Assembly: GCA_019752015.1 (NCBI GenBank)
Contig: JAIEMQ010000021.1
Coordinates: 879 to 64,878 of the forward strand
Direction: 5' to 3'
Source of the DNA: Cyanobacteriota bacterium
GTDB taxonomy: Bacteria > Acidobacteriota > Vicinamibacteria > Vicinamibacterales > UBA2999
DNA: 64,000 bases
Part shown: one piece after another, positions 3,866 to 63,350 of the stretch
How the letters are laid out: each line of letters starts with the position of its first letter
Numbering within the stretch: position 1 is the first letter of the stretch
Program-made: the position numbers and the translations under genes
Notes under the pieces: generated by a model
What the model saw: only the letters and a program-made list of their open reading frames with translations
Database searches by the model: none
What the model was told of the DNA's origin: nothing

Positions 3866-3869
3866 CTTT

Positions 3870-4659: not shown

Positions 4660-5285
4660 ATTGGCTTCGTCAGGACATCGATGCGGACGTAGTTGACCGT
4701 GCACGGGTCGTGATTGGCGATCGGGCGCGAGCCGCCGGCGTCGATCCACTGTTCGGTCCCTGACGGCAGCTCGATCAGCAGCGTGGGTTCCTTCGCGGTG
4801 ATCGTCTGCTCGTCGTGCTGCTCGAGCGCGATGCGCGTGATGCGCACCTGCTTGTTGGTGAACTCGTTCTCGGTCGGTGGGATGCGGCGCCTGTTCCTGG
4901 CGCCGGCGTTCTCCGTCTTCAGCCAGATGCGCAGGAAGTCGGTCGGCGCCGACGACGTATTCTCGGCGGTGTGATGTTCCTCCGGACCAGTTGAAACCCT
5001 GATCGCACCGGCCTTCACCGCGGGCCGCGTCACCGAGCGGTTGTTGTTCCCCGAGTGCTTGAACACCACGCCGTCTGAATCATTCAGGTAGACGTAAATC
5101 GTGGTCCCCGCGGCATGCGTGTGCTCCGGCAGCTTCGCGCCCGCATCGTAATGGACGCGGACCACGCGCGCGAAATTGTTCTCGAACTGCACCTCGTAGG
5201 CATCCGGCAGCGATTTCGTCGGATCCTGCATCACACCCGCTATGACCAGCGTGGCCACCGCAAATCGAAGCATCCTGTCCACCAT
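4656..5285 (-). CDS. Secreted hypothetical protein (possibly cupin-like beta protein)
   Basis: N-terminal signal-like segment 'LRFAVATLVIAGVMQ'. The His-rich stretch 'EHTHAAGTTIYVYLND' is a weak cupin hint. The stop codon lies inside the right REP copy. Confidence 0.65.
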   Translation of the reverse strand: MVDRMLRFAVATLVIAGVMQDPTKSLPDAYEVQFENNFARVVRVHYDAGAKLPEHTHAAGTTIYVYLNDSDGVVFKHSGNNNRSVTRPAVKAGAIRVSTGPEEHHTAENTSSAPTDFLRIWLKTENAGARNRRRIPPTENEFTNKQVRITRIALEQHDEQTITAKEPTLLIELPSGTEQWIDAGGSRPIANHDPCTVNYVRIDVLTKPM

Positions 5286-5307
5286 TCTTCGCTAAACTGT
5301 CCCGACC

Positions 5308-6363: not shown

Positions 6364-6428
6364 GGCGTCGCTAAGTTGCGGGCAGGCCGCGATTTTTAGC
6401 GAATCGCTAAGAAAAGACCGGGCTCGTA

Positions 6429-24227: not shown

Positions 24228-25150
24228 TGCGCATCGGCATCGATGTCGGCGGCACGAAGATCGAAGGGCTCGCGCTGGCCGATGACGGGCGCCAGCTCGA
24301 TCGCCGCCGCATTGCCGCGCCCCGCGGCAATTACGGCGACACCATCAAGGCCATTGTCGGCCTGGTGACGTCGATGGAAACCGACGTGGCGCGAGCCCGC
24401 CTCGACGAAGCGCCGAAGGCGCGAAGCCGGGTCGGCATCGGCATCCCCGGCGCGATTTCTCCAGCGACCGGGCTGATCAAGAACGCCAACTCGACGTGGT
24501 TGAACGGCGAGCCGCTCGCCGACGATCTGGCGGAGGCGCTCGCGCGCCCGGTGCGGCTGGCGAATGACGCGAACTGCTTCGCGCTGTCCGAGGCGGCCGA
24601 CGGCGCCGCGGCCGGCGCGCCGGTCGTGTTCGGCGTGATCATCGGGACCGGTACGGGCGGCGGCCTCGTCGTCAACGGACGGATCGTGATCGGCGCCAAT
24701 GCGATCGCGGGAGAGTGGGGCCACAATCCGCTGCCGGCGCCGGAAGATGATGAGCGCCCGGGGCCGCAGTGTTACTGCGGGCGCAGCGGTTGCATCGAGA
24801 CGTTCCTGTCGGGCCCGGCACTCGCGCGTGACTACAGTTGGCGCGGCGGTGACGACATGTCCGCGTCGGAAATCATCGCGCGCGTCGATTCCGATCCTCG
24901 TGCCGCAGCCAGCCTCGACCGGTACGAACGCCGCTTCGCGCGCGCGCTCGCATCAATCATCAACATCGTCGACCCCGATGTCATCGTGCTCGGCGGCGGT
25001 TTGTCGAACATCACGCGGCTGTACGATCGCGTGCCGGCACTCTGGGGACCGCACGTCTTTTCCGATCGCGTCACCACGCGGCTGGTCCGGGCGAAGCACG
25101 GTGATGCCAGCGGCGTGCGCGGCGCGGCCTGGCTGTGGCCGGCATCATGA
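24227..25150 (+). CDS. ROK-family sugar kinase (N-acetylglucosamine/fructo-kinase-like)
   Basis: 'RIGIDVGGTKIE' ATP-binding motif and ROK zinc motif 'CYCGRSGCIETFLSG'. GTG 24227 overlaps the preceding TAG by 1 nt. Confidence 0.85.
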   Translation: MRIGIDVGGTKIEGLALADDGRQLDRRRIAAPRGNYGDTIKAIVGLVTSMETDVARARLDEAPKARSRVGIGIPGAISPATGLIKNANSTWLNGEPLADDLAEALARPVRLANDANCFALSEAADGAAAGAPVVFGVIIGTGTGGGLVVNGRIVIGANAIAGEWGHNPLPAPEDDERPGPQCYCGRSGCIETFLSGPALARDYSWRGGDDMSASEIIARVDSDPRAAASLDRYERRFARALASIINIVDPDVIVLGGGLSNITRLYDRVPALWGPHVFSDRVTTRLVRAKHGDASGVRGAAWLWPAS

Positions 25151-25181
25151 AACGCGCTGCGGTAACTGTTACAATCGGAAT

Positions 25182-25607
25182 ATGAAGCTACGGTTTCTTT
25201 TCGGCACCCTGGCAGTGATCTGGCTCGCCGCCGTGACGCAGTTCAGCGCGGAGCAGAGCAAGTCGGTGTGGGACGGCGTGTTTACGACGGAACAGGCGGA
25301 CCGCGGCGCGGCCACCTACAAGACGGCGTGCTCCGAGTGTCACGGGCAGGATCTCGCCGGCGACGGATTCGCACCGGCGCTGAGCGGCTCGGACTTCATG
25401 GGCAACTGGAACGAGCTGTCAGTCGGCGATCTGTTCGAGCGCATCCGCATCTCGATGCCGCCGAGCGGTCCGAGCGCGGTGACGCCGGCCCAGAAGGCCG
25501 ACATCGTGGCGCACTTGATGAACTCGAACAAATTCCCCGCGGGCACGGCGGAGCTCGAGCCCAAGACGGAAGTGCTCAAGGGCATCAAGATCGAGTTGAA
25601 GAAATAG
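25182..25607 (+). CDS. Small secreted mono-heme cytochrome c
   Basis: Signal peptide 'MKLRFLFGTLAVIWLAAV', heme motif 'CSECHG', distal 'SMPP' Met region. Only the 3' part of the 24699 ORF is real. Confidence 0.8.
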   Translation: MKLRFLFGTLAVIWLAAVTQFSAEQSKSVWDGVFTTEQADRGAATYKTACSECHGQDLAGDGFAPALSGSDFMGNWNELSVGDLFERIRISMPPSGPSAVTPAQKADIVAHLMNSNKFPAGTAELEPKTEVLKGIKIELKK

Positions 25608-25681
25608 GAATTTGTTGACCTGTTGATCTTGTGATCTCTTGATTTCAAATCATCAGAGCAAAAGGTCAACAGATCACAAGA

Positions 25682-26311
25682 TTAGGGATTTTTCCGCCAC
25701 CACGGCGTGCCGAGGTTCGTATACGGCCCGCCGTCGACCGAGATTGCGCTCGCCACTCGATAGTTGAGTGGCGAGAGCAAGTGCATCACGTGACGCACGC
25801 GCACCGACTTGCCATTGACCGTGAACGGCGCGCTGTCGAAGTGAATGTTGTAGATCCCGCCAAGATCGCCGCCCACCGGACCGAACTGCATGTAGGAAAA
25901 CCCGCGCGAGTCGGTGACCTGCCGCGCCAGCACCTTGTTTTCCTTGTGAAACGCGATCAGCTCGCGCACCTTGAAATTTCCTGACGGCCCTTCGCCTTCG
26001 GTGACCGCTTCGTAAAAGCGGCCGTCGACCTTCGACACGACTGTCGTGCCGGTGTAGGGACCCGCCGGTCCGAGCGGACTCTCCGGCATCGACCACTCGA
26101 AGGTCCACTTGCCAAGGAAATAGGTGTCGAAGTCGAACAGCGGGACCGTGTCCGTGCTCTCGGTCGGGCGGCCCAGCGCCGGCATGGCGCCCTTCGGCAC
26201 CTGCTGCAGTGTTTCTTTCGCGCCCTCCGGGCGCGAGGCTTCGCCATTCAGCGTCGAGTTGAGCGCCAGTAGAACGACAAGCCACGTCCGTTTCAGGTGT
26301 TGTATTCTCAC
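25682..26311 (-). CDS. Secreted protein of unknown function, paralogue of 63310-63930
   Basis: Shares 'GRPT...VPL(F/L)DFD.YFLG.WTF', 'FYEAV.EG', 'VTDSRG(F/Y)SY(M/T)Q', 'F.SAPFT..GK.VR..H' with the 63310 gene. Start uncertain: GTG 26311 gives a good signal peptide, and ATG 26338 is the alternative. Confidence 0.65.
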   Translation of the reverse strand: MRIQHLKRTWLVVLLALNSTLNGEASRPEGAKETLQQVPKGAMPALGRPTESTDTVPLFDFDTYFLGKWTFEWSMPESPLGPAGPYTGTTVVSKVDGRFYEAVTEGEGPSGNFKVRELIAFHKENKVLARQVTDSRGFSYMQFGPVGGDLGGIYNIHFDSAPFTVNGKSVRVRHVMHLLSPLNYRVASAISVDGGPYTNLGTPWWRKNP

Positions 26312-26324
26312 GCGCGGAGAGTAT

Positions 26325-27449
26325 ATGCGACGACTCATTCTCTTTTCGACTGCCGCGCTTGCGCTGAGCGCGATCATACCGATGAACGCGCAGGCACCCA
26401 CTCCGGTGTCCGCGCCAACCGACGGCGGCTACCGGCTCGTGCCGAACTGGCCGACACTGCCGCCCGGAGAGTTCTTCGGATTGAAGACGCCGCCACCGCC
26501 GCCCGCCGAACGTGAAGCGCAAGCCGCGGCGCGCCGCGCCACCGGCGGCGCAGGCAACACGCCTCGTCCCGCCGGCCAAGGCCCGACCAATCAGCCCGGC
26601 ATCTCGGGTCTCGCGATCGATCAGAACGATCGCATCTACGTGTTCAATCGCGGCGCCAAGCCGGTGATGGTGTTCAACACCGACGGCAAGCTCGTCGCAT
26701 TCGGCGGCGATCAGGATCTCAACGGCAAAAAGCTCGATCCGAACTGGCAACACTCGGGCACAGTCGATTGGGATGGCAATATCTACATGATCGAACGCGA
26801 CGCCCATCGCATCGTAAAAATGAACAACAAGATGGACAAAGTGCTACTGCAACTGGGTACGACGATGGAGAAGGGGAATGATGCGACGCATTTAGATCTC
26901 CCGTCAGGAATTGCAGTACTGAAGAACGGCAACATCATCGTTACCGACGGCTACGGCAATAACCGCGTCATCCTGTTCGACAAGACCGGCAAATTCATCA
27001 AACAAGCGGCAAAAGGTGCCGGCGGTCCTGGCGATAAAGGCAAAGGCATTGGCGAGTGGGATCTTCCGCACAAGCTGGCCGTTGATGCGCAGGAAAATCT
27101 CTACATCATCGACCGCGAAGGGCATCGCCTGCAGGTTTTCGACAAGAACTTGAATTATCTGCGCGAGATCAACGTGCCCGGATGGAATCCGTGGGACATC
27201 GGCATTTCACGCAAGGGTGATGACGGATTTGCGTACATCGCCGATCATGCGCTCGAACGTGTGCATAAGTTGTCGTTGAAGGACGGCAAGCTCGTCGCCA
27301 CGTGGGGCAAACAGGGATGGGGACCGGGAGAATTCGACTGGGTCCACGGCATCGTTGTCGACTCGAAGGGCGCCGTGTACGCAGCGGATACGTACGGTCA
27401 GCGCATTCAGAAATTTGTGCCGACGATGACCCGCACGAGTGTCCAGTAG
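26325..27449 (+). CDS. Secreted six-bladed NHL-repeat beta-propeller, peptidyl-alpha-hydroxyglycine lyase (PAL)-like
   Basis: Signal peptide 'MRRLILFSTAALALSAIIPMNAQA'. Six repeats of the form 'x(H/S)GxAVDxxGNIYVxDxxxHRIxxF', for example 'HSGTVDWDGNIYMIERDAHRIVKMN', 'LPHKLAVDAQENLYIIDREGHRLQVFD', 'VHGIVVDSKGAVYAADTYGQRIQKF'. Confidence 0.8.
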   Translation: MRRLILFSTAALALSAIIPMNAQAPTPVSAPTDGGYRLVPNWPTLPPGEFFGLKTPPPPPAEREAQAAARRATGGAGNTPRPAGQGPTNQPGISGLAIDQNDRIYVFNRGAKPVMVFNTDGKLVAFGGDQDLNGKKLDPNWQHSGTVDWDGNIYMIERDAHRIVKMNNKMDKVLLQLGTTMEKGNDATHLDLPSGIAVLKNGNIIVTDGYGNNRVILFDKTGKFIKQAAKGAGGPGDKGKGIGEWDLPHKLAVDAQENLYIIDREGHRLQVFDKNLNYLREINVPGWNPWDIGISRKGDDGFAYIADHALERVHKLSLKDGKLVATWGKQGWGPGEFDWVHGIVVDSKGAVYAADTYGQRIQKFVPTMTRTSVQ

Positions 27450-28525
27450 ATTCCCATTCCCGCAATAACTAGCGAGGCTGGTATCACCACGCGTTGGCGA
27501 TACCAGCCGTTTTTCATGAATGGAAATACTGCGATCATCGCCGCTGCGATGATCGTCAGCTGACCGAATTCAACGCCCAGGTTGAACGTCAGGAGCGCGG
27601 TCAGGAATTCATCGCGTGGCAGGCCGAGCTCGCGCAGCACGCCCGCGAATCCCAGGCCGTGCAGCAATCCGAACATGAACACCAGCGCGACTCGCCATGG
27701 CTTCAGCTCGCGCGTGACGATGTTCTCAACCGCGACGTAGGCGATCGACAGCGCGATCAGCGGTTCGACGGCTCGTGAGGGTAACGAGACGATGCCGTAC
27801 ATCGACAGGCCAAGCGTGATCGAGTGCGCGATCGTGAAGGCCGTGACCTGCAGCAGCAGCGGCTTCAGCCGCGCGCTGAGCAGAAAGAGGCCGAGCACGA
27901 ACAGGATGTGATCGAGTCCCTGTGGCAGGATGTGCGTGTAGCCGAGCCACAAGTACTGCCGCACGATCTCGATCCGCGTCGGCCGCGTGAACGATCGCGA
28001 CAGATCGATCACGGTGCTCCAGTTCGTGCCGTCGATCCACTCGATCGTCGACGACCCATCGGGCTGCCGGATCTCGAGCGGGTAGCGATCGCCGACGAGG
28101 CCATACAGCCACCGCAGCCGCGTGGCGTCGCGCGGCATTTGTCCAGTCAACCGGTAGCCGGTCTTCACGAACTCGACCGACGCCGCCCGGACTTCATGCG
28201 CATCGACAAACAACACGATGCGGTCCGCGAATATGCCGGTCAGATTCGCGAGGCGTTGATCGCGCTGTTCCGGCGTGATGTTTGGCGGGACGCTCCCGCC
28301 CGCGAACGTCTCGAGTCTGAGCAGCAGCCACATCGCATCGTTCGAGACATCGAGGACGAACGATCCGTCGGCCGACAGCGTCAGGCCGACGCGCGTTTTC
28401 TCGGCCTCGTGGGCGCCGATCGTGGTGCTCGCCAGCGCGACGAACAGAACGAGCGAAGCGAGCCCTGAGCGAGATGAACTTCGCCTGCGAAGTCCATCGA
28501 GTCGAAGGGACACGTGGCGTATCAT
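27407..28525 (-). CDS. HupE/UreJ-family metal permease with an N-terminal periplasmic domain
   Basis: 372 aa from 'MIRHVSLRLDG...'. Family motif 'HILPQGLDHILFVLGLFLL' plus further TM helices ('AFTIAHSITLG', 'FGLLHGLGFAG'). The upstream 615 aa of the 987-aa ORF is antisense to the 28946 gene and is rejected. Confidence 0.8.
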   Translation of the reverse strand: MIRHVSLRLDGLRRRSSSRSGLASLVLFVALASTTIGAHEAEKTRVGLTLSADGSFVLDVSNDAMWLLLRLETFAGGSVPPNITPEQRDQRLANLTGIFADRIVLFVDAHEVRAASVEFVKTGYRLTGQMPRDATRLRWLYGLVGDRYPLEIRQPDGSSTIEWIDGTNWSTVIDLSRSFTRPTRIEIVRQYLWLGYTHILPQGLDHILFVLGLFLLSARLKPLLLQVTAFTIAHSITLGLSMYGIVSLPSRAVEPLIALSIAYVAVENIVTRELKPWRVALVFMFGLLHGLGFAGVLRELGLPRDEFLTALLTFNLGVEFGQLTIIAAAMIAVFPFMKNGWYRQRVVIPASLVIAGMGIYWTLVRVIVGTNF

Positions 28526-28534
28526 ACGGCGCGT

Positions 28535-28891
28535 ATGAACGTTGTCTTTGCCGTGCTGGTGCTTGCGATCGTGCAGGCGCCGCCAAAGAAAGTCGAGATC
28601 GTCAGCGTCACCGGCTGCCTGCGCGAGCAGGGTCCGAACTGGATGCTGGTCGCGGCGACCGAGCCGGTGCCGAGCATCGCCAACCAGGCACAAGGCGCCG
28701 AGATTCCCACGACACCGCCGGCGGGCAAGAACACCTTCCGCCTGATCGGCACGAGCGAGTTCAACCTGCCGACGATGAAGGACCACACGGTGGTGATTCG
28801 CGGCCTGTTTATCACGGACAAGGTGAGCAGAATCAACGTCACCTCGGCGGTCGAAGCCGTCGCGTCCTGCACGCCCGGCGCTCCCAAATAG
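28535..28891 (+). CDS. Small secreted hypothetical protein (2 Cys)
   Basis: ATG 28535 gives the signal peptide 'MNVVFAVLVLAIVQAPP'. 118 aa. No recognisable motif. It lies directly upstream of the heme-c/PHM-like gene. Confidence 0.5.
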   Translation: MNVVFAVLVLAIVQAPPKKVEIVSVTGCLREQGPNWMLVAATEPVPSIANQAQGAEIPTTPPAGKNTFRLIGTSEFNLPTMKDHTVVIRGLFITDKVSRINVTSAVEAVASCTPGAPK

Positions 28892-28945
28892 GTTAAACTC
28901 GCCCGGAAGCTGTAACGGGTAACCCGTAACCGCAGGAGTCCGTAA

Positions 28946-30379
28946 ATGAAACGTCTCGCGTTGATCGCCATCGGTGTTGGAGCCCTCGCGTCGTTCAACG
29001 TTTCGGCACAGCCTTCCTTGACTGGCCCTCCGGGCCAGTCCCCGACGTTCGCCAGGGACGTCGCGCCGATCATGTACAGCAAGTGTGCGAACTGTCATCG
29101 TCCCGGCGAAGTGGCGCCGATGCCGCTGCTGTCGTACGAGGACGCGCGGCCGTGGGCCAAGGCGATTAAGTCCAAGGTCGTGGCGCGCGAAATGCCCCCA
29201 TGGGGCGCCGACATGTCGCAGACGCTGCCGATGCGCAACGACATCAGCCTGTCGCAGAAAGAGATCGACACGATCGCGGCGTGGGTCGATGGCGGCGCCG
29301 TCAGAGGCAACGCTTCTGAGATGCCGCCGTCGCCGAAGTTCGCGACCGGATGGACCGCCGGCACCGAGCCGGATCTCGTGCTCGCAATGCCCGTCGAGTT
29401 CGAGATTCCCGCCGAAGGCGAGCTCGGCGTGCAGATGTTCTATTCGAAGGTGCCGTGGACGGAAGACAAGTTCGCGGAGATCGTCGAGCTCAAGCCGAGC
29501 AACCGCGCCGTGCTGCATCACGCCGGCATTTTCTTCGTCGATATTCCCGAAGGCGCGTCGATCGTCGACGGCCGCATTGTCGACAAGGACGGCAAGGTGA
29601 TCGGCGATCGCGGATCGCGCGGGCTGCCGTCGACCGACAGCGGTCTTCCGGGATCGAGCAAGCTGCTGTCGTGGGTGCCCGGCCGCGGGCTCGATCACCA
29701 TCGCGCCGACATCGGCAAACGCCTGCCGGCGGGCAAGTACATCAACTGGCAGCTCCACTACAACCCGACCGGCAAGCCGGAAAAGGATCGGACCAAGCTG
29801 GGCATCTGGTTCAACAAGGTGCCGGTAACGCACGAAGTGCTGATTCGCCAGGCCGGCGATCCGCTGGCGACGACCAAGGGCGGCCTGTCGATCTATCGCG
29901 CCGAAGGCCGCGAGACCGAATACACGGCGGACCCCGGCAGCACGCGCCGCAGCCGCACCACGCCGAACATTCCGCCGTACGCGGAAAACTGGCGCCTGAC
30001 CGGCATCACGCCGGTGACCGAAGACATCACGCTCTATGCGATGTCGCCGCACATGCACCTGCGCGGCAAGAGCTTGAAGTGGGTGATCGTCTATCCGGAC
30101 GGCACCGAGAAAACGATCCTCAACGTGCCGAAGTTCGACTTCAACTGGCAGTTCAACTACGAGTTGAAGGAGCCGCTGAAGATTCCCGCGGGCAGCAAGA
30201 TCCTCGGCCTCGGGGTGTATGACAACTCGATCCGCAACAAGTGGAATCCAGGCCCGCACCTGCCGGTCTACTGGTCGGAGCAGAGCTGGGACGAGATGTA
30301 TCAGCCGTTCACCGAGTACTCCGTCGACTCGCAGGACTTGACGGTTCTCAAGCCCGTCACGCAGCAGCAACGGGACTGA
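28946..30379 (+). CDS. Secreted fusion of an N-terminal heme-c (CxxCH) domain to a PHM/DBH-like type-II copper monooxygenase domain (paralogue 1)
   Basis: 'FARDVAPIMYSKCANCHRPGEVAPMPLLSYEDARPWAKAIKSKVVAREMPPWG'. Cu-ligand-like positions are 'AVLHHAGIFF' (HH), 'WQLHYNPTG' (H), 'SPHMHLRGK' (HxH) and 'SWDEMY' (M). Also 'FDFNWQ'. Confidence 0.8.
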   Translation: MKRLALIAIGVGALASFNVSAQPSLTGPPGQSPTFARDVAPIMYSKCANCHRPGEVAPMPLLSYEDARPWAKAIKSKVVAREMPPWGADMSQTLPMRNDISLSQKEIDTIAAWVDGGAVRGNASEMPPSPKFATGWTAGTEPDLVLAMPVEFEIPAEGELGVQMFYSKVPWTEDKFAEIVELKPSNRAVLHHAGIFFVDIPEGASIVDGRIVDKDGKVIGDRGSRGLPSTDSGLPGSSKLLSWVPGRGLDHHRADIGKRLPAGKYINWQLHYNPTGKPEKDRTKLGIWFNKVPVTHEVLIRQAGDPLATTKGGLSIYRAEGRETEYTADPGSTRRSRTTPNIPPYAENWRLTGITPVTEDITLYAMSPHMHLRGKSLKWVIVYPDGTEKTILNVPKFDFNWQFNYELKEPLKIPAGSKILGLGVYDNSIRNKWNPGPHLPVYWSEQSWDEMYQPFTEYSVDSQDLTVLKPVTQQQRD

Positions 30380-30452: not shown

Positions 30453-30980
30453 ATGCGTCACGCCAGAACGCTCTGCATGGCCGCGATCCTCGCGGCCGTT
30501 TTTGCTTCACCGTCATTTGCGCAAGCCGCTGAACCGTTCCAGATCGGCGCCGTCAACATCGGCTACGTCGCCCGCACCAGCCGCACCGGCAAGGCCGCGA
30601 TCGCCGCGCTCGATGCCTTCGGGAAGCAGAAGTCGATCGAAGTGCAGAGCAAGGCCGAGGAGCTGCAGAAGCAGCAATCCGCATTCCAGAAACAGTCCGC
30701 CACGATGAGCCCGCGTGCCGTCGTCGATCTGCAGCGTGCGTTCGAGAAGTCGAAGCTCGAGTTCGATCGCCTTCAGCAGGACGCGCAGGCGGAGATCGAG
30801 GCGATGCAGACGAAGTTCGACGCCGACTTCCGCATCAAGCTGGCGCCGATCGTCGACGAGATTTCGAAGGAGAAGGGACTGCACTTCGTCTTCGGCATCG
30901 ATCAGGCCGCGATCGTGTGGTGGAGTCCCGCCGTGGATATTTCGGACGAGTGCGTGAAGCGTCTTGATGCCGCGAAGTAG
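30453..30980 (+). CDS. Periplasmic chaperone Skp (OmpH family)
   Basis: Signal peptide, then a coiled-coil-rich 175 aa protein ('...GKAAIAALDAFGKQKSIEVQSKAEELQKQQSAFQKQ...'). Confidence 0.8.
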   Translation: MRHARTLCMAAILAAVFASPSFAQAAEPFQIGAVNIGYVARTSRTGKAAIAALDAFGKQKSIEVQSKAEELQKQQSAFQKQSATMSPRAVVDLQRAFEKSKLEFDRLQQDAQAEIEAMQTKFDADFRIKLAPIVDEISKEKGLHFVFGIDQAAIVWWSPAVDISDECVKRLDAAK

Positions 30981-31019: not shown

Positions 31020-31607
31020 TTACTTGACGATCTTCCCGCCGTTGCGATTGTCGATGACGAAGCGATCGCGCGACGGCATCACGACCTTCGGCAGCGTCGC
31101 GCGATCCATGACCGCATCCTCGGGCACGATCTTGTTGAGCGCGAGGATGTAGGCGGTCAGCGCATACGTTTCATCCGGCGTCAGCGTGCCCGGCTGCATG
31201 AACGGCATCGCTCGATTCGTGTAGTCGTACAACGTCGTCGCATACGGCCAGTAGTTGCCGACGGTCTTCACGAGTTTCGGATTGGTCGCGAAGTCCCAGT
31301 TCTTGCCCGACTCGCGATCGACAAGACGATCCGCGGATCCGCCGATGCCGTTGGCGCCGTGGCACGACTGGCATTTCGCGGCGTAGATCTTTGCGCCTTC
31401 AGCCGCGGTGCCTTTTCCCTCTGGCAAACCTTTGCCGTCAGGACGCACGTCGATATCGATTTTCGCGATCTCTTGCGCCGTTGCGACCCGACCAATCCCG
31501 AGCGGCTTGGCAGATTGTGGTTGAGCCATCACGCTAATTGAGCAAGCGGCCGCGATCGCGAGCACGAAAGAAAAGTATCTGTGCCTGCTGTGGCCCTGGG
31601 AACGCAT
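31020..31607 (-). CDS. Cytochrome c subunit of sulfite dehydrogenase (SorB/SoxD-like)
   Basis: Signal peptide and 'CQSCHGANG' heme motif. The start overlaps the stop of the molybdoenzyme gene by 1 nt. Confidence 0.75.
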   Translation of the reverse strand: MRSQGHSRHRYFSFVLAIAAACSISVMAQPQSAKPLGIGRVATAQEIAKIDIDVRPDGKGLPEGKGTAAEGAKIYAAKCQSCHGANGIGGSADRLVDRESGKNWDFATNPKLVKTVGNYWPYATTLYDYTNRAMPFMQPGTLTPDETYALTAYILALNKIVPEDAVMDRATLPKVVMPSRDRFVIDNRNGGKIVK

Positions 31608-32851
31608 TAGAGGCTCCCTGCGAATTTCACGCTGCCATCGGCATTCACTTTCCAGGCGCGGATGTGATTGAAGTGATACGCCGTCGACGGACCGCGGGCC
31701 GCGAGCAACACGTCGTAGGTTGGCTGCACGTAGCCTGTTTCATCGGTGGCGCGGCTCGCCAGTACGGTCTCGCCGCCCTTCCATTCGAACGGCAGACGGA
31801 ACCGCGTATGGCACTTCGGCAGCACCGGATCGTCGAGCTTCGCGAGCTGCCAGGTCCTGCCGCCATCGGCGCTGACGTCGACCCTGGTGATCCTGCCGCG
31901 GCCGCTCCACGCGATACCGCGAATCTCCCACCAGCCCGGGCCGGTCAGCTTGTCGGGGAACGACGGCTCGGTGATCAGCGACTTCGCATCCATGTCGAGG
32001 CTGAAGATGCGCGCGGTGCCATCGGGCAGCGGATCGGTGTACTTCGACGTTTCCTCGCGCGTCATGAACGGCTGATCGGCGAGCTCGATGCGGCGCAGCC
32101 ACTTCACGCTGGCGTTGCCTTCCACGCCGGGCAGGAACAGGCGGACCGGATAGCCCTGCTCGGGACGCAGCGGCTCGCCGTTCTGTCCGTAGGCAATGAG
32201 CGCGTCATCCCACGCCTTGGCGATCGGAATGCTGCGCGTCATCACGGCAGCGTCGGAGCCTTCGGCGAGAAACCAGGTGGCGTTCGGTGATGCGCCGGCT
32301 TCGCGCAGCAGCGTGGCCAGCGGCACACCGGTCCATTCGCTGGTGCTCGTCAGCCCGTCGATCTGCTGCGGCGTGAGATCGGTTTGATGGCCTTCACGTC
32401 GATAGACGCGGCCGCCGTTGCCGGAGCATTCCATCGCGCGAATGATCGATCGGCCCGGGAAGCGGCGCAGATCGTCGACGGTGAAGACCATCGGCCGATC
32501 GACCAGGCCGTGAATCGTCAGCGTGTGCTGCGTCGGATCGATCGCCGGCACGCCGCCGTGATGGCGCTCGAAGTGCAGATCGCTCGGCGTGATGATGCCG
32601 TCGAGATCCTGCAGCGGCGTGAGGCTCGACGTGCGCCGCTCGCCGAGCGACACGCGCTTCGGCCGCTCGAATGGCGAGCGCGATCCGACGTCGGTGCTGA
32701 GCGGACCTTGCACTTTCGTGGGGTCGGCGGGGACTTTCGGACGCGCCGCCTGATCCGGATTCTGGCCGGCGATCGGCAACGCCGCGCCGACGATACCTGC
32801 GGTTCCGGCTGCTAATACCCGCCGCCGCGAGATGGAATGCGGTCGATCCAT
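31607..32851 (-). CDS. Molybdopterin sulfite oxidase-family catalytic subunit (SorA/SoxC-like), Tat-exported
   Basis: ATG 32851 is preceded by GGAGGA. Twin-arginine signal 'SISRRRVLAAGTAGIVGAA'. Mo-ligand cysteine context 'IRAMECSGNGGR'. 414 aa. Confidence 0.85.
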   Translation of the reverse strand: MDRPHSISRRRVLAAGTAGIVGAALPIAGQNPDQAARPKVPADPTKVQGPLSTDVGSRSPFERPKRVSLGERRTSSLTPLQDLDGIITPSDLHFERHHGGVPAIDPTQHTLTIHGLVDRPMVFTVDDLRRFPGRSIIRAMECSGNGGRVYRREGHQTDLTPQQIDGLTSTSEWTGVPLATLLREAGASPNATWFLAEGSDAAVMTRSIPIAKAWDDALIAYGQNGEPLRPEQGYPVRLFLPGVEGNASVKWLRRIELADQPFMTREETSKYTDPLPDGTARIFSLDMDAKSLITEPSFPDKLTGPGWWEIRGIAWSGRGRITRVDVSADGGRTWQLAKLDDPVLPKCHTRFRLPFEWKGGETVLASRATDETGYVQPTYDVLLAARGPSTAYHFNHIRAWKVNADGSVKFAGSL

Positions 32852-33018
32852 GCGTCCTCCTGAAGTTGCGCGAGCGTAGCAGAAAGTCGGGTTGGACGTT
32901 CGTTTAATAGAATCGCGCCACTTTTCGTGAATTTCTGCGCTCCGGACGCTACGTTTGGGGCCAGCCCCCGGATGTCGTACGGGCTTTACAAACGCTGACA
33001 CGAAATCCCGCTAAGTCG

Positions 33019-33047
33019 TTGATAATTCTGGTTGTTAGTGTTACAAA
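33019..33047 (+). promoter_or_regulatory. Candidate sigma70-type promoter for the 33092-52402 gene array
   Basis: TTGATA-N17-TACAAA lies in a locally AT-rich island about 45 nt upstream of ATG 33092. This is a pattern match only. Confidence 0.3.
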
Positions 33048-33091
33048 ACGGCCGTGCTAGCCAGGCGGCAAACGTGTCACGTAGGCGCCGA

Positions 33092-35551
33092 ATGAAAAGA
33101 CTCACGTCAGTAATTTTCTCCGCGCTCGTGTTTGCCCTTGGTCTCTCTGTTTTTGCAGACCAGAACAAACCCGCGCCGGCAGCATCGCAGCCCGTTGCTT
33201 CACACACCGCCACCGCCATCACTGACTCACAGACTGCCCTCGTGAAGCAGTATTGCGCGACCTGTCACAACGATCGCAACAAGAACAACGCCGGCGGCTT
33301 GACGCTGCAGACGTTCGACGCGGCGAAGGTCGGCCACGACGCCCAGGTGGCGGAAGTCGCCGAGAAGATGATCAAGAAGCTGCGCTCCGGCATGATGCCG
33401 CCGCCCAGCGCGCGGCGTCCCGAGGGCGCGGTGCTGGCGTCGTTTGCCGCGTCGATGGAATCGCGGCTCGATCAGGCCGCGGCGCTCAACCCCAATCCCG
33501 GCCGCCGGCCGTTCCAGCGCCTCAATCGCGCCGAGTACACGCGCACGGTGAACGCGCTGCTGTCGCTCGACGTCGACGTCAACGCCTTCCTGCCGCCCGA
33601 CACGATCAGCGCCGGCTTCGACAACGTCGCGGATGCGCAGACGTTTTCGGCGACGCTGATGGAAGGCTACCTGCGCGCCGCGAGCCGCATCAGCACGCTC
33701 GCGGTCGGCGATCCGAAAGCCAGCGCCTCGGAATTCACCTACAAAGTGCCGCGCACCGGCTCGCAGATGCATCACGTCGAGGGCGCGCCGTTCGGCACGC
33801 GCGGCGGCGTGGCGGTGGAGCACACGTTCCCGGCGGACGGCGACTACAGCTTCCGCATGCAGCTGCACTCGATCCCGACCGGCCAGTTGTTCGGCAGCAC
33901 CGTGCGCGGTGAGTTGATCGAAGTGTCGATCGACGGCGAGCGCGCCGCGGTCCTCGAGATCAACCCGCGCATGAGCGAGGCCGATCCGAACGGCATGAAC
34001 ATCGTGACGCCGCGCGTCCACGTCAAGGCGGGCACGCATCGCCTGTCGGCGGCGTTCGTGCAGCGCTTCGACGCGGTGCCCGACGATCTGCTGCCGCCGA
34101 TCGATCACAGCCTGGCGGATTCACAGATCGGCGCGGGGTTCGGCATCACCACGCTGCCGCACCTCCGCGAGTTCGCGGTCAGCGGCCCGTTCAAGGTCAC
34201 CGGCGTGTCGGAGACGCCGAGCCGCAAGCGCATCTTCACGTGCCGGCCGACGTCGGCGAGCGAAGAGAGCACGTGCGCGGCGGAGATCATCCGCAAGATC
34301 GCGACGCAGGCGTATCGCGGTCCGCTGTCGGCGCAGGACGTCGATGGCCTGACGAAGTTCTACGCGCAGGGACGCAAGGACGGCGGCGATTTCGAGTCGG
34401 GCATCCGCATGGCGCTGCAGGCCATCCTGGCGAGCCCGCGATTCCTGTTCCGTCTCGAGGAAGCGCCGGCCACCGTGCGCGCGGGGCAGAACTACCGCAT
34501 CAGCGATCTCGATCTGGCGACGCGCCTGTCGTTCTTCATCTGGGGCGCGGGTCCCGATGACGAGCTGCTGAAGCTCGCGCAGCGCGGCACATTGCGCGGC
34601 CCCGGCGTGCTGCCGGCGCAGGTCAAGCGCATGCTCGCCGATCCGAAATCGGAAGCGCTGTCGACGCGGTTCGGCGCGCAGTGGCTGCGGTTGCAGGATC
34701 TCGAGAAGATTTATCCGGACGCGCTGCTGTTCCCGTATTACGACTTCAAGCTCGGCGAAGCGCTGCGCAAGGAAACCGAGCTCTTCTTCGACAGCATCGT
34801 CCGGGAAGACCGCAGCCTGCTCGATCTGATCACGGCGGACTACACCTTCGTGAACGAGCGCGTGGCGCGTCACTACGGCATTCCGAACATCAACGGCGAG
34901 AACTTCCAGCGCGTCACGCTCGCCGACGAGAATCGGCGCGGTCTGCTTGGCCAGGGCAGCATCCTCGCGCTGACGTCGGTGGCCGATCGCACCTCCCCGG
35001 TGCTGCGCGGCAAGTGGATCATGGAAGTGCTGCTGGCGTCGCCGCCGCCGGCGCCGCCGCCGAATGTGCCGCTGCTCGATGAGACGAAGGCGGAGTCCGC
35101 CGATGGCGGCATGCTGACGACGCGTCAACGCATGGAGCAGCATCGCGCCAACCCGCAGTGCAACTCCTGCCATCGCGTGATCGATCCGCTCGGCCTCGCG
35201 CTCGAGAATTTCGACGTCACCGGCCGCTGGAGAATCCGCGACAACGGCAACCTGGTTGATCCGGTCGGCGACCTCTACGACGGCACGAAGATGACGGGCC
35301 CGAACGGCCTGCGCGCGGCGCTGTTGAAGCACCAGGACATGTTCTTCACGAGCGTCACCGAGAGCCTGATGACCTACAGCCTCGGCCGCCGCGTCGAGTA
35401 TTTCGACATGCCCGCGATTCGCAGGATCATCCGCGACGCGGCGAAGGACGACAACCGGTTCTCGGCCTACGTGCTGGGAGTGGTGAACAGCCGCGCGTTC
35501 CAGATGGCCCGCGCGGACGCCGTGGACACGACCGACGAGAAGAATCGCTGA
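33092..35551 (+). CDS. Module 1 gene A: large secreted heme-c multidomain protein (planctomycete-type DUF1592/DUF1595/DUF1587/DUF1588/DUF1585-like)
   Basis: Signal peptide 'MKRLTSVIFSALVFALGLSVFA'. 'LVKQYCATCHNDRNK' and 'CNSCHRVIDPLGLALENFDVTG' are two CxxCH motifs. Also 'MIKKLRSGMMPPP', 'VADRTSPVLRGKWIMEVLLASPPP'. Confidence 0.85.
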   Translation: MKRLTSVIFSALVFALGLSVFADQNKPAPAASQPVASHTATAITDSQTALVKQYCATCHNDRNKNNAGGLTLQTFDAAKVGHDAQVAEVAEKMIKKLRSGMMPPPSARRPEGAVLASFAASMESRLDQAAALNPNPGRRPFQRLNRAEYTRTVNALLSLDVDVNAFLPPDTISAGFDNVADAQTFSATLMEGYLRAASRISTLAVGDPKASASEFTYKVPRTGSQMHHVEGAPFGTRGGVAVEHTFPADGDYSFRMQLHSIPTGQLFGSTVRGELIEVSIDGERAAVLEINPRMSEADPNGMNIVTPRVHVKAGTHRLSAAFVQRFDAVPDDLLPPIDHSLADSQIGAGFGITTLPHLREFAVSGPFKVTGVSETPSRKRIFTCRPTSASEESTCAAEIIRKIATQAYRGPLSAQDVDGLTKFYAQGRKDGGDFESGIRMALQAILASPRFLFRLEEAPATVRAGQNYRISDLDLATRLSFFIWGAGPDDELLKLAQRGTLRGPGVLPAQVKRMLADPKSEALSTRFGAQWLRLQDLEKIYPDALLFPYYDFKLGEALRKETELFFDSIVREDRSLLDLITADYTFVNERVARHYGIPNINGENFQRVTLADENRRGLLGQGSILALTSVADRTSPVLRGKWIMEVLLASPPPAPPPNVPLLDETKAESADGGMLTTRQRMEQHRANPQCNSCHRVIDPLGLALENFDVTGRWRIRDNGNLVDPVGDLYDGTKMTGPNGLRAALLKHQDMFFTSVTESLMTYSLGRRVEYFDMPAIRRIIRDAAKDDNRFSAYVLGVVNSRAFQMARADAVDTTDEKNR

Positions 35552-35590
35552 TTGCAGATTGCAGATTGCAGATTGCAGATTGCTGATTAG
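35550..35590. repeat. Heptanucleotide tandem repeat (GATTGCA)x4 plus GATTGCT plus a partial copy
   Basis: It starts inside the stop codon of gene A1 and ends at the Shine-Dalgarno (aggaga) of gene B1. Confidence 0.9.
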
Positions 35591-35599
35591 GAGAGCCCG

Positions 35600-37012
35600 A
35601 TGGAGTTCCTGACGAAAAAGCACATCTCACGCCGCACGATGCTGCGCGGCCTCGGTGTCACGATGGCCCTGCCGGTGCTGGATGCGATGTCGCCTGCCGC
35701 GACCGCGTTCGCCCAGACCACCGCCGCGGCGAAGAAGGTGCGCTTGACGGCGATCGAGATGGTGCACGGCTCCGCCGGCGCCACCCAGTTCGGCCTCGGC
35801 AAGAACTTCTGGTCGCCGGCTGAAGTCGGCACCGCGTTCGACCTGAGCCCCGGATCGCTCTCGTCGCTCGAGCCGTTCCGCGATTACCTGACGATCGTCA
35901 GCAACACCGACGTCAGGAACGCGGAAGCGTTCTCGCTGCCGGAAATCGGCGCCGATCACTTCCGCTCGAGCGCGGTGTTCCTGACGCAGTCGCATCCCAA
36001 GAAGACGCAGGGCTCGGATGTGCTCGCCGGCACGTCGCTCGATCAGCTCTACGCGCAGAAGTTCGGACAGGACACGGCGATTCCGTCGATGCAGCTGTCG
36101 ATCGAGACGGTCGATCAGTCCGGCGGCTGCGCTTACGGGTACAGCTGCGCCTACACCGACAGCATCAGCTGGGCGACGCCCGAGCAGCCGCTGCCGATGA
36201 TCCGCGACCCGCGCGCGATTTTCGATTCACTGTTCGGCGTCGGCGCCACCGCGGCCGAGCGCGCGCAGAGCCGCCGCGCCGACAAGAGCATCCTCGACTG
36301 GGTCACCGCGGAAGTGTCGCGCCTCAGCAAGGATCTCGGCGCCTCGGATCGCCAGCGCCTGAATCAATACCTGACCGAGATTCGCGAGATCGAGCGCCGC
36401 ATCCAGAAGATCGAGGCGCAGAACTCGAGCGGCGACGTGCGCGAGCTGCCGGACGCGCCGGTCGGCGTGCCGGATGATTTCGCCGAGCACGTCAAGCTGA
36501 TGTTCGATCTCCAGGTGCTCGCCTACGCATCGGACACGACGCGCGTGTTCTCGTTCAAGATGGGCCGCGACGGGTCGGCGCGCGTCTATCCCGAGAGCGG
36601 CGTGCGCGGCGCGTTCCACCCGGCGTCGCACCACGGCGAGCGCGAGGATCGCGTCACCGACTTCATGAAGATCAACCGCTATCACGTCAGCATGGTTCCG
36701 TACTTCCTCAAGAAGCTGAAGGAGACGCCGGACGGCGACGGCCAGAACCTGCTCGACAACACGCTGGTGATCTACGGATCGCCGATGGGCAACTCGAACG
36801 TCCACAACCACAAGCGCTGCCCGCTGTTCCTCGCCGGCAAGGCCGGCGGCGCGCTGCGCGGCAACCTGCACCTCAAGGCCGCCGACGGCACGCCGATGGC
36901 CAACGTGTTCCTGACGGTGATGCAGGACATTGGTCTCGATCTGAAGAGCTTTGGTGACAGCACCGGCCGGTTTGAGTTGAAGAGTGTTCCGCCGGCGACG
37001 GCGGCGTTCTAA
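35600..37012 (+). CDS. Module 1 gene B: Tat-exported DUF1552-like ('HxxSHH') protein
   Basis: Twin-arginine signal 'HISRRTMLRGLGVTMALPVLDAM'. 'FHPASHHGERED', 'TIVSNTDVRNAEAF', 'GSPMGNSNVHNHKRCPLF'. Confidence 0.85.
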   Translation: MEFLTKKHISRRTMLRGLGVTMALPVLDAMSPAATAFAQTTAAAKKVRLTAIEMVHGSAGATQFGLGKNFWSPAEVGTAFDLSPGSLSSLEPFRDYLTIVSNTDVRNAEAFSLPEIGADHFRSSAVFLTQSHPKKTQGSDVLAGTSLDQLYAQKFGQDTAIPSMQLSIETVDQSGGCAYGYSCAYTDSISWATPEQPLPMIRDPRAIFDSLFGVGATAAERAQSRRADKSILDWVTAEVSRLSKDLGASDRQRLNQYLTEIREIERRIQKIEAQNSSGDVRELPDAPVGVPDDFAEHVKLMFDLQVLAYASDTTRVFSFKMGRDGSARVYPESGVRGAFHPASHHGEREDRVTDFMKINRYHVSMVPYFLKKLKETPDGDGQNLLDNTLVIYGSPMGNSNVHNHKRCPLFLAGKAGGALRGNLHLKAADGTPMANVFLTVMQDIGLDLKSFGDSTGRFELKSVPPATAAF

Positions 37013-37022
37013 GAGGACTGTC

Positions 37023-38786
37023 ATGCGTAGGTTGATTGCAGTCACATCGGTTTTGGCGATCACGCTTGCGATCGTCGTCAACGCCGCGGCCACCGCACCC
37101 GTTGCGGATGCGGCGATGTCGCGCGACCGCGAGACCGTCAAGACGCTGCTGAAGAACGGCGCCGACGTCAACGCGGCGCAGGGCGACGGCATGACCGCGC
37201 TGCACTGGGCGGCGAGAAACGGCGACGCCGAGCTGACGCAGATGCTGCTGTTCGCCGGCGCGAACGTCAAAGCAACCACGCGGCTCGGCGGCTACACGCC
37301 GCTCTTGATGGCGGCGGATCAGGGTCATGCCGCGGTGATCAAGACGCTGCTCGTGGGCGGAGCGGATGCAAAAGCCGCGAACCTGCTGGGCACGACGCCG
37401 TTGATGCTGGCGGCGGCGTCCGGCAACGCGCAGGCCGTCACGACGCTCGTCGAGAACGGCGCCGAGATCGAAGCCAAGGAAAAGACGTTCGGCCAGACAC
37501 CGCTGATGTTCGCCGCGGCATCGAATCGCGTTGAGGCGATCAACGCGCTGTTGAAGCTCGGCGCGAACGTCAAGGCGACGTCGAAGGTCAACAACGTCGG
37601 CAATCTCAGCTCGCAGCAGCAGGAATTCCTTGCGAGCGCCTCCGGCAGCGGGAATCAGGCCGGCGGCAACGGGACGGGTCGGAACGGACAGGTCGTCGCT
37701 CCGGGTGCGCAGGCTCCGCCGCAGGGTGGCGGCGGTGGTGGCGGCGGCCGATTTGGCGGCGGCGGCAAGCCCGGCATCGATCGCGGCTACTTCTACAACG
37801 AGCTGATCGGCACGCAGGGCGGCCACTCGGCGCTGATCCTTGCCGCGCGCGGCGGCTTCACCGAGGCGGTGAAGGCGCTCGTCGCCGGCGGCGCCAGCGT
37901 CAATCAGATCAGCGAGGGCGACCACACCAGCCCGCTGTTGATCGCCGCGATCAACGGTCACTTCGATCTCGCGAAGTGGCTGCTCGATCAGGGCGCCAAC
38001 CCGAGCGCGGCCGCCGACAACGGCGTGACGCCGCTCTATGCGGCGCTGAACGTGACCTGGGCGCCGCGCGCGCTCTATCCGCAGCCGCGCGCGTTCAACC
38101 AGCAGCAGATTACCTACCTCGATTTCATGAAGGCGCTGCTCGAGAAGGGCGCCGATCCGAACCTGCGCCTCAGCAAGAAGGTGTGGTACTCGGAATACAA
38201 CTTCGATCTCGCCGGCGTCGACGAAGCCGGCGCGACGCCGTTCTGGCGCGCCGCGTTCGCCGGCGACGTGGCGGCCATGGCGCTGTTGTACGAGCACGGC
38301 GCCGATCCCAATATTTCGACAATGCGTCCGATCGGACGACGCGCGTTGGGTGATGCCGGCGCTGCGCGTGAAGTGAAGGATGTGTCGGGCCTGGATCCGA
38401 TTGCGCCCGGCGGCCCCGGTGTTCCGCCGCTGCAGGCCGCGGCCGGCGTCGGCTTCGGTGAAGGCTTCGCCGCCAACTCGCACATTCATTCGCCGGCGGG
38501 CTTCCTGCCCGGCATCAAGTTCATGGTGGAAGTGGCGGGCGCCGACGTCAACGCCGTCGATCACGATGGCAACACGGCGCTGCATCACGCCGCCGCGCGC
38601 GGCGACGTCGAGAGCATCCTGTATCTCGTCTCGAAGGGCGCCGACGTCAAGAAGGTGAATCGCGAAGGCCAGACCGTTGCCGACATGGCGAACGGCCCGG
38701 TGCAGCGCGTGCAGCCGTGGCCCGAGGCGCTGACGCTGCTCGAGAAGCTCGGCTCCAGGAACAATCACAAGTGCGTTAGCTGCTGA
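37023..38786 (+). CDS. Module 1 gene C: secreted ankyrin-repeat protein with a Gly-rich linker and C-terminal NNHKCVSC
   Basis: Sec signal 'MRRLIAVTSVLAITLAIVVNAAA'. Repeated 'G.TALHWAA..G....(V/L)LL..GA(D/N)VNA' units. G-run 'GGGGGGGRFGGGGKPG'. Ends '...NNHKCVSC'. Confidence 0.85.
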   Translation: MRRLIAVTSVLAITLAIVVNAAATAPVADAAMSRDRETVKTLLKNGADVNAAQGDGMTALHWAARNGDAELTQMLLFAGANVKATTRLGGYTPLLMAADQGHAAVIKTLLVGGADAKAANLLGTTPLMLAAASGNAQAVTTLVENGAEIEAKEKTFGQTPLMFAAASNRVEAINALLKLGANVKATSKVNNVGNLSSQQQEFLASASGSGNQAGGNGTGRNGQVVAPGAQAPPQGGGGGGGGRFGGGGKPGIDRGYFYNELIGTQGGHSALILAARGGFTEAVKALVAGGASVNQISEGDHTSPLLIAAINGHFDLAKWLLDQGANPSAAADNGVTPLYAALNVTWAPRALYPQPRAFNQQQITYLDFMKALLEKGADPNLRLSKKVWYSEYNFDLAGVDEAGATPFWRAAFAGDVAAMALLYEHGADPNISTMRPIGRRALGDAGAAREVKDVSGLDPIAPGGPGVPPLQAAAGVGFGEGFAANSHIHSPAGFLPGIKFMVEVAGADVNAVDHDGNTALHHAAARGDVESILYLVSKGADVKKVNREGQTVADMANGPVQRVQPWPEALTLLEKLGSRNNHKCVSC

Positions 38787-38790
38787 TGCG

Positions 38791-41292: not shown

Positions 41293-41318
41293 GGCAGAAG
41301 GCAGAAGGCAGAAGGCGA
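41291..41318. repeat. Heptanucleotide tandem repeat (AAGGCAG)x3 plus AAGGCGA
   Basis: It starts within the TAA stop of gene A2 and ends just before the Shine-Dalgarno (agaggag) of gene B2. This is the same junction position as the 35550 repeat, but the unit sequence differs. Confidence 0.9.
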
Positions 41319-41331
41319 AAAGAGGAGCCCG

Positions 41332-42735: not shown

Positions 42736-42738
42736 ATC

Positions 42739-46898: not shown

Positions 46899-46901
46899 TT
46901 T

Positions 46902-46927
46902 GTAGAGGCGGGACTTTAGTCCCGCCT
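46902..46927. repeat. 26-bp hairpin element, copy 2 (identical to 30991-31016)
   Basis: 'gtagaggcgggactttagtcccgcct' occupies the A3-B3 junction, the position held by heptamer repeats in modules 1 and 2. Confidence 0.8.
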
Positions 46928-46940
46928 ACTGGGAGCACCT

Positions 46941-48344: not shown

Positions 48345-48347
48345 CAG

Positions 48348-63309: not shown

Positions 63310-63350
63310 GTGCCTGAAGTGCCTATGGTGCCTAAAGTGCCTGAGGTGCT
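63310..63350 (+). repeat. 9-nt tandem repeat (GTGCCTNNN)x4 plus a partial copy
   Basis: 'gtgcctgaa gtgcctatg gtgcctaaa gtgcctgag gtgct' lies at the junction or N-terminus of the 63310 gene (VPE-VPM-VPK-VPE-VL). Confidence 0.85.

Follow-up and report, generated by a model that had tools for sequence, protein, structure and literature searches.

The locus and its two heme c-PHM-like genes

The subject of this analysis is a pair of paralogous genes in a 64,000-nucleotide stretch of DNA, referred to here as the window (contig JAIEMQ010000021.1 of assembly GCA_019752015.1, positions 879 to 64,878 of the forward strand), from an organism deposited as a Cyanobacteriota bacterium and placed by GTDB in the Vicinamibacterales of the Acidobacteriota. 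The product of each gene joins an N-terminal monoheme cytochrome c domain to a region resembling the catalytic core of peptidylglycine alpha-hydroxylating monooxygenase (PHM) and dopamine beta-monooxygenase (DBH). An earlier reading of the letters alone (the sequence-only reading) had described the pair as heme-fused copper monooxygenases. It gave the coordinates of both open reading frames (ORFs) exactly, and their products were found by BLASTP to share 41% identity across 463 residues (E 6e-123). The two genes, with the domains of copy 1 in residue numbers of its product, are as follows.

28946-30379, + strand: copy 1, a heme c-PHM-like protein of 477 amino acids
Copy 1, about residues 1-21: signal peptide
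Copy 1, about residues 33-120: monoheme domain, with C47-x-x-C50-H51 and M83PPW
Copy 1, about residues 145-300: CuH subdomain, with H191, H192 and H271
Copy 1, about residues 300-340: insert, clade-specific and of low model confidence
Copy 1, about residues 340-465: CuM subdomain, with H369, H371 and M451
61846-63309, + strand: copy 2, a paralogous heme c-PHM-like protein of 487 amino acids whose heme and Cu ligand positions match those of copy 1

In both proteins a signal peptide precedes the monoheme domain (CxxCH…MPPW), which is followed by a core of ~330 residues. The N-terminal stretch F..DVAPI…C..CHRP.EVAPM…MPPWG, said by the sequence-only reading to be shared, occurs in both translations, as do the motifs it quoted for copy 1 and copy 2 respectively: AVLHHAGIFF and AVVHHITVSL, QLHYNPTG and NMHYTPTG, PHMHLRGK and PHMHVRGK, SWDEMY and SWDEMS, and FDFNWQ and YRFDWQ. 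Thousands of homologues were found for the + strand products of the two ORFs. Long antisense ORFs over both genes are artefacts of a GC content of 63-67%; the one over copy 1 (27407-30370, - strand) is a HupE-like gene, described below, read on through the antisense of copy 1.

Relationship to PHM and DBH

A single-sequence phmmer search of the PDB with copy 1 returned nothing meaningful (best E 0.16), and PHM and DBH were reached by family profile only. This profile, A1, is an alignment of 32 diverse members of the family, and against the PDB it matched human DBH (4zel) at E 2.1e-7 and rat PHM (1opm/1phm) at E ~3e-7. The match to PHM formed one colinear stretch across both subdomains (profile positions 149-427 against PHM 28-282), in which the motifs that carry the copper ligands of PHM pair with those of the family as follows.

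Family vvHH with PHM VHHM (PHM ligands H107/H108)
Family qvHY with PHM QVHY (PHM ligand H172)
Family pHmHlrGk with PHM HTHHLGK (PHM ligands H242/H244)
Family dEM with PHM DEMC (PHM ligand M314)

An AlphaFold2 model computed on the same alignment (mean predicted local distance difference test score, pLDDT, 82.8; predicted template modelling score 0.82) showed a helical N-terminal domain followed by two beta-rich domains. When the model was compared with the PDB by Foldseek, matches 1-31 were all DBH or PHM (E 3.5e-12 to 6.5e-9, probability 1.00, target-normalised template modelling (TM) score up to 0.67), and unrelated beta-sandwiches appeared only after them, at E>3e-5. The PHM/DBH core behind a c-type heme domain, which the sequence-only reading had proposed from motifs, was thus recovered in the predicted structure. 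On homology and fold, the two computational tests suggested by that reading were judged positive. It is clear that the resemblance of the family to PHM and DBH far exceeds chance, and that copy 1 and copy 2 are distant but genuine members of this superfamily fused to a monoheme cytochrome c.

No NCBIfam model matches either copy. Elsewhere in the family, precomputed matches to Cu2_monoox_C (PF03712) are already attached to some relatives in the databases (e.g. P0074), and two others, P0234 and P0262, exceed the gathering score of that model (25.4 and 29.1 vs 23) and miss that of Cu2_monooxygen, PF01082 (22.5 and 25.2 vs 30). Since such hints exist and some relatives pass the gathering score, the fold assignment itself was within anyone's reach.

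Conservation of the metal ligands

The ten ligand positions (C47, C50, H51, M83, H191, H192, H271, H369, H371 and M451) were each at least 98.9% conserved in 270 family sequences. Within the 32 members of A1 the most conserved positions of all were these proposed cofactor ligands, the two methionines standing in M83-P-P-W and E450-M451. At the CuH site the ligand was retained in 266/267 sequences for H191, 265/266 for H192 and 264/266 for H271, and at the CuM site in 260/261 for H369, 259/262 for H371 and 249/250 for M451. All six of the positions proposed as copper ligands in the sequence-only reading align to the ligands of PHM, in the order of PHM, and are near-invariant across the family. 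Conservation extends to the second sphere, where the counterpart of PHM Q272 (Q402) was glutamine in 256/257 sequences and that of PHM Q170 (Q269) in 190/266. The features of a c-type cytochrome are likewise present, with a visible signal peptide and near-invariant C47/C50/H51 and M83 of MPPW.

Size, distribution and domain architectures of the family

The family comprises at least 5,996 clusters at 90% identity, and at least 15,769 representatives at 50% identity with E<=1e-3, 2,098 of which reach E<=1e-30. Database names of its members are "cytochrome c", "mono/diheme cytochrome c family protein" or "hypothetical". At least 598 confirmed relatives were found among GTDB species representatives; the best 80 of these belong nearly all to the Acidobacteriota (Vicinamibacterales, Blastocatellia, Bryobacteraceae, Solibacteraceae and Terriglobia), with two from the Planctomycetota. 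The family occurs in several copies per genome, since several assemblies recur among the relatives and the window itself holds two copies.

The closest genome locus, L003 (CAWCGQ010000001.1), has a copy 1 that is 92% identical and the same gene order, and is labelled 'uncultured Acidimicrobiia bacterium'; this bin label may be wrong because the remaining close relatives are all Vicinamibacterales/Acidobacteriota. Domain architectures vary within the family. P0125 (1251 amino acids) is an example of tandem duplication of the whole unit, and extra modules in other relatives include a BlaR1-type peptidase M56, CBM48, a GDSL lipase, a 3-keto-disaccharide hydrolase and an EF-hand.

Gene neighbourhoods of the two copies

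The genes that accompany the two copies in the window are listed below, the first four belonging to the cluster of copy 1 and the last two flanking copy 2.

25682-26401, - strand: DUF1579-like calycin barrel, cluster-1 copy; start probably at ~26310-26340; divergent from the next gene
26325-27449, + strand: six-bladed NHL beta-propeller of 374 amino acids resembling peptidylamidoglycolate lyase (PAL), with signal peptide; Pfam NHL/DUF5128
27407-28525, - strand: HupE_UreJ_2 membrane protein of 372 amino acids; start approximate; divergent from the small-protein/copy-1 pair
28514-28891, + strand: small secreted protein of ~125 amino acids, 54 bp upstream of copy 1; start uncertain, with an alternative ATG at 28535
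60717-61820, + strand: TPR and Peptidase_MA_2 (HExxH) protein, 26 bp upstream of copy 2
63310-63930, + strand: DUF1579-like calycin barrel of 206 amino acids, partner of copy 2, its start codon abutting the stop codon of copy 2

An ORF at 25674-26807 (- strand) was rejected as an artefact of high GC; it overlaps the real DUF1579-like gene in another frame (25682-26401) and the antisense of the PAL-like gene. Copy 1 is the third gene downstream of the PAL-like gene, and the five-gene set recurs in orthologue loci. In one locus, L065, whose enzyme is 56% identical to copy 1, the five families are repacked: the heme-copper enzyme, DUF1579-like, NHL and small-protein genes lie in that order on the + strand, abutting or overlapping, with the HupE-like gene divergent. 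The frequency of each partner was assessed with iterated profiles in the window and 82 genome loci, 83 sources in all. The DUF1579-like gene was present in 30/83 (29/82 genome loci and the window), mostly directly downstream of the enzyme gene, the small-protein gene in 24/83, and the HupE-like gene in 10/83 (9/82 genome loci and the window). Every orthologue locus of the window type, and L065 as well, has the HupE-like gene adjacent and divergent.

At copy 2 a similar association is seen. Among its close orthologues (46 metagenome loci) the barrel gene lies directly downstream wherever that flank exists, and the peptidase gene is usually upstream. When the comparison was started in reverse, from distant DUF1579-like homologues (36-41% identical), a gene of the heme-copper family was found upstream and one of the small-protein family downstream. 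A structure model of the DUF1579-like protein, built by AlphaFold2 from database homologues (pLDDT 92.9), is a calycin-type beta-barrel whose closest structures are nitrobindins, Rv2717c and the spirocyclases OssO/OlmO (TM 0.62-0.74); the barrel profile found no sequence relatives in the PDB. Because the barrel is without any conserved His, Cys or Met, it is probably not a heme protein but one that binds, carries or processes hydrophobic ligands beside the enzyme.

The small protein has two invariant cysteines, one in a 'GC' near the mature N-terminus and the other 1-8 residues before the C-terminus, and gave zero matches in Pfam, NCBIfam and the PDB, the last including a profile search. It was considered as a glycine-extended precursor substrate and rejected, as it ends in Cys-x(1-8) and a C-terminal Gly is absent. 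The HupE_UreJ_2 protein has an N-terminal extracytoplasmic region of ~190 residues without a family match, and its predicted mature N-terminus begins with His (…TTIGA|HEAE…), which might be metal-binding. Neither the barrel nor the small and HupE-like proteins are covered by an NCBIfam model. All of the partner proteins should occupy the periplasm too, because all have N-terminal hydrophobic export-like segments, and metal delivery is a possible role for the small and HupE-like proteins. The term 'self-contained', applied to the hydroxylase in the sequence-only reading, is probably too strong because the enzyme genes have conserved partners, namely the barrel and the small two-Cys protein and, for copy 1, also the PAL-like lyase and the HupE-like protein; the hydroxylase assignment itself is taken up below.

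A PAL-like neighbour of copy 1

The PAL-like gene was compared with the PDB through a profile, A4, which is an alignment of its orthologues. Its longest and highest-scoring colinear match was to rat PAL (3fvz), in one stretch of 225 positions beginning after R533 (116 bits, E 8.8e-34), whereas the scores of generic NHL proteins such as Thin and TRIM71 are sums over short repeats, none of them above 51 bits. In NCBIfam the gene had only a far sub-threshold match to ScyF. Five positions of the alignment correspond to residues of the PAL active site.

PAL-like H143: 3fvz chain index 94, with offset 491 H585
PAL-like Y210: 3fvz chain index 163, with offset 491 Y654
PAL-like H249: 3fvz chain index 199, with offset 491 H690
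PAL-like R264: 3fvz chain index 215, with offset 491 R706
PAL-like H341: 3fvz chain index 295, with offset 491 H786

We take H585/H690/H786 to be the Zn ligands of PAL, Y654 to be catalytic and R706 to bind substrate, a numbering that reportedly goes back to Chufan et al. in 2009. One offset, 491, brings each of the five to a residue of the right type, which provides an internal check on these numbers. The His/His/His/Tyr/Arg set was invariant in 120/120 homologues and is also kept in L065, and two of the homologues had been named 'peptidylamidoglycolate lyase' by JGI. In another locus, L004, three tandem NHL propeller genes (3362-6916, + strand) lie directly downstream of a copy 1 orthologue (77% identical), and two of the three keep the complete PAL-like His/Tyr/His/Arg/Arg/His set at ~26% identity to the PAL-like protein of the window. 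Bacterial PALs have been found active in vitro, their natural function being described as unclear (PMC10900485); the same source used the PAL of Exiguobacterium and cited a patent (PMC10900485).

Proposed mechanism and alternative explanations

The two proteins are probably periplasmic monooxygenases whose coppers receive electrons from the heme. They probably work together with the barrel and the two-Cys protein, and copy 1 may in addition be coupled to a PAL-type lyase. Such an enzyme would be exported by Sec and would carry three redox metals in the periplasm, a covalent c-type heme and two uncoupled coppers in a PHM/DBH fold, with Met83 of MPPW as the sixth heme ligand beside the CxxCH attachment. 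Electrons from the periplasmic cytochrome pool would first pass singly to the heme domain, which would then reduce CuH (His191, His192, His271), after which CuM (His369, His371, Met451) would bind O2 and hydroxylate a C-H bond of the substrate as in PHM and DBH. The tethered heme would thereby take over the role of ascorbate/cytochrome b561; that it replaces ascorbate as electron donor, as the sequence-only reading had suggested, is a reasonable inference from the architecture. The barrel may present or process a hydrophobic ligand. In the copy-1 clade, hydroxylation adjacent to an amide N might be followed by cleavage by the PAL-like Zn lyase, giving a two-step oxidative N-dealkylation, and copy 1 with the PAL-like gene would then be a split, heme-driven bacterial counterpart of animal PAM. 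A fuller version can be offered only tentatively. In it, Acidobacteria would possess a periplasmic form of the animal peptide-amidation pathway, powered by the respiratory chain: a PHM-like hydroxylase supplied by heme c would act with a PAL-like lyase encoded separately, a barrel carrier and the two-Cys protein, and the compounds that undergo oxidative N-dealkylation or amidation might be, for example, secreted peptides or N-acyl amino-acid lipids.

Several observations weigh against a PHM-type monooxygenase coupled to a lyase. In Pfam the window proteins stay below the gathering scores. Scores for Cu2_monoox_C were 21.2 for copy 1 and 15.9 for copy 2 (gathering score 23), Cu2_monooxygen gave zero match in either protein, and Cytochrome_CBB3 scored 23.3 and 17.7 (gathering score 27). 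Because these gathering scores are missed, the family has to be seen as a distant branch of PHM/DBH lying outside curated thresholds. The glycine-carboxylate anchor of PHM is not conserved, R240 corresponding to S367, which varies as S/M/T/F, and Y318 to F455; PHM N316 corresponds to Q453, also a variable position. The PAL-like gene adjoins the enzyme gene in only 9/82 genome loci, seven of which are close relatives with window-type synteny, maybe by descent, and copy 2 is without a PAL-like neighbour. Finally, many relatives (including P0201, P0234, P0262, P0125, P0242, P0268 and P0240) carry an N-terminal AhpC-TSA/Redoxin domain, which the proposed mechanism leaves unexplained; these redoxin domains have a monothiol C-P-x-S/A-N motif instead of CxxC.

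The sequence-only reading had left the substrate unassigned, rightly so, because the R240/Y318 anchor maps to variable positions. On the same grounds a literal peptidyl-glycine substrate is doubtful, though the PAL-like partner retains the counterpart of R706, and to judge from these alignments the family is not a peptidyl-glycine-specific PHM. The missing carboxylate anchor also favours the alternative that survives best, which is possible although on the unlikely side: that copy 1 and the PAL-like gene are neighbours merely by the ancestry of one lineage, and that each enzyme is a stand-alone hydroxylase of small hydrophobic molecules received from the DUF1579-like barrel, with no lyase step. 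PAL-like adjacency is limited to the copy-1 clade, L065 and L004, and the PAL-like gene is absent at copy 2 and at most loci, while the barrel is widespread. What speaks for coupling is that three arrangements link both families, namely the window type, the operon of overlapping genes in L065 and the downstream paralogues at 26% identity in L004, and that the biochemical logic of PHM-PAL pairing is known.

Further from a coupled monooxygenase is the suggestion that the protein is a heme-copper electron-transfer oxidoreductase, that is, an electron sink or a periplasmic enzyme reducing O2, nitrite/NO, superoxide or peroxide, in which the PHM-like fold only scaffolds heme-fed coppers. In some copper nitrite reductases tethered cytochrome c domains do feed copper sites, and this precedent lends the suggestion some weight. 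In crystals the CuM site of PHM binds nitrite, azide and CO (PDB entries among the Foldseek matches), the redoxin fusions of many relatives hint at peroxide or thiol redox chemistry, and the residues that anchor substrate in PHM are not conserved. Yet the entire catalytic signature of PHM is kept, including the CuM methionine and the counterparts of Q170 and Q272, the monothiol motif of the redoxin domains (CPxS/A-N) provides no clear peroxidatic signature, the ligand-binding barrel suggests an organic substrate, and a PAL-like lyase in the cluster is sensible only given a hydroxylated organic product. A reductase or electron sink is judged improbable. Least likely is a copper-handling protein that is not an enzyme. 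It would sequester copper, sense the redox state or reduce Cu(II) to Cu(I) for uptake, and the HupE-like permease and the two-Cys protein would belong to the same metal-trafficking system. This reading could draw on the divergently adjacent transporter-family gene of window-type loci and L065 and on two invariant cysteines that could bind Cu(I), but it is at odds with the restriction of HupE-like genes to the copy-1 clade, with a most widespread partner devoid of conserved His, Cys and Met, with a two-subdomain catalytic core, second-sphere Gln and PAL-like partner that exceed the needs of a metal binder, and with a multi-copy occurrence that suits diversified enzymes more than a homeostasis factor.

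Other features of the window

Downstream of copy 1 lie an OmpH gene (30453-30980) and, converging on it, a SorAB-like pair consisting of a monoheme cytochrome c (31020-31607, - strand) and a molybdopterin oxidoreductase with a Mo-co dimerisation domain (31607-33001, - strand). The SorAB-like pair, OmpH and a cytochrome c gene at 24699-25607 were rejected as functional partners of the enzyme, as they are not conserved in the loci L001 or L002. The region 33032-50054 (+ strand) holds three tandem copies of a three-gene module.

33032-35551, 38791-41292 and 44397-46898, + strand: DUF1592-family PSD/PSCyt cytochrome-like proteins, ~835 amino acids
35600-37012, 41332-42735 and 46941-48344, + strand: DUF1552 'HXXSHH' proteins, ~468 amino acids
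36984-38786, 42739-44412 and 48348-50054, + strand: ankyrin-repeat proteins, 557-600 amino acids

It seemed unusual for the DUF1592/DUF1552 pair to be joined each time by an ankyrin protein as third partner.

Comparison with known systems and significance

PHM, DBH and tyramine beta-monooxygenase (TBM) are the textbook non-coupled dicopper monooxygenases; they depend on ascorbate, the route of electrons between their coppers is still debated, and they have been studied almost only in animals. With PHM (the catalytic core of PAM; 1PHM/1OPM) the bacterial family shares, in the predicted model, a core of two beta-sandwich subdomains, and CuH HH…H and CuM HxH…M ligands that correspond in order and position for position, together with conserved counterparts of Q170 and Q272. 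It differs in being only ~13-15% identical to PHM, in a predicted periplasmic location with an N-terminal c-heme domain (predicted to be covalent) and no sign of ascorbate dependence, and in longer spacings between ligands and clade-specific inserts; the disulfide pattern of PHM is not evident. Among DBH, tyramine beta-monooxygenase and MOXD (4ZEL), DBH is the best match of the family both by profile and by Foldseek. DBH too carries an accessory domain N-terminal to the dicopper core, a DOMON domain where the bacterial family has a cytochrome c, but the latter is of an unrelated fold with heme c, and the bacterial proteins have no dimerisation domain.

With bifunctional PAM and the prokaryotic PALs the copy-1 cluster has in common a propeller bearing the Zn-His triad, catalytic Tyr and Arg of PAL. 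Unlike in bifunctional PAM, copy 1 and the PAL-like protein are encoded by separate genes with the HupE-like and small-protein genes between them, and no glycine-extended precursor is evident at the cluster. Precedents for the proposed electron supply come from cytochrome c-fused copper nitrite reductases and from cellobiose dehydrogenase, whose cytochrome domain supplies electrons to LPMOs; in both, as proposed here, the copper site receives its electrons one at a time from a heme domain, which takes the place of a small-molecule reductant, although their copper domains (cupredoxin trimer, LPMO histidine brace) and chemistry are unrelated. The literature searched contained no paper on bacterial heme-c/PHM fusions, on DUF1579 or on the Pfam accessions in bacteria, which does not prove that none exists. 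Three things seem unreported: that fusion to heme c is systematic in the family and goes with complete conservation of the ligands, that the barrel and the small protein are conserved partners, and that a PAL-like protein is linked to a heme c-PHM-like enzyme.

With its built-in heme donor, a very large bacterial branch of these enzymes would offer an electron entry point that can be tracked spectroscopically, in proteins for which bacterial expression is plausible. If the proposal is true, the pairing of PHM with PAL and the supply of electrons from heme to copper in this class of enzymes would occur outside eukaryotes. The link to PAL, if it holds, would explain the presence of active PALs in bacteria, giving the prokaryotic enzymes their missing physiological partner, and would allow amidation or oxidative dealkylation to be carried out enzymatically without ascorbate, which is of interest to biocatalysis. 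The family is common in soil Acidobacteriota, where a genome often holds several copies, and an oxidative activity so far overlooked in the turnover of carbon or nitrogen in soil may therefore be at stake.

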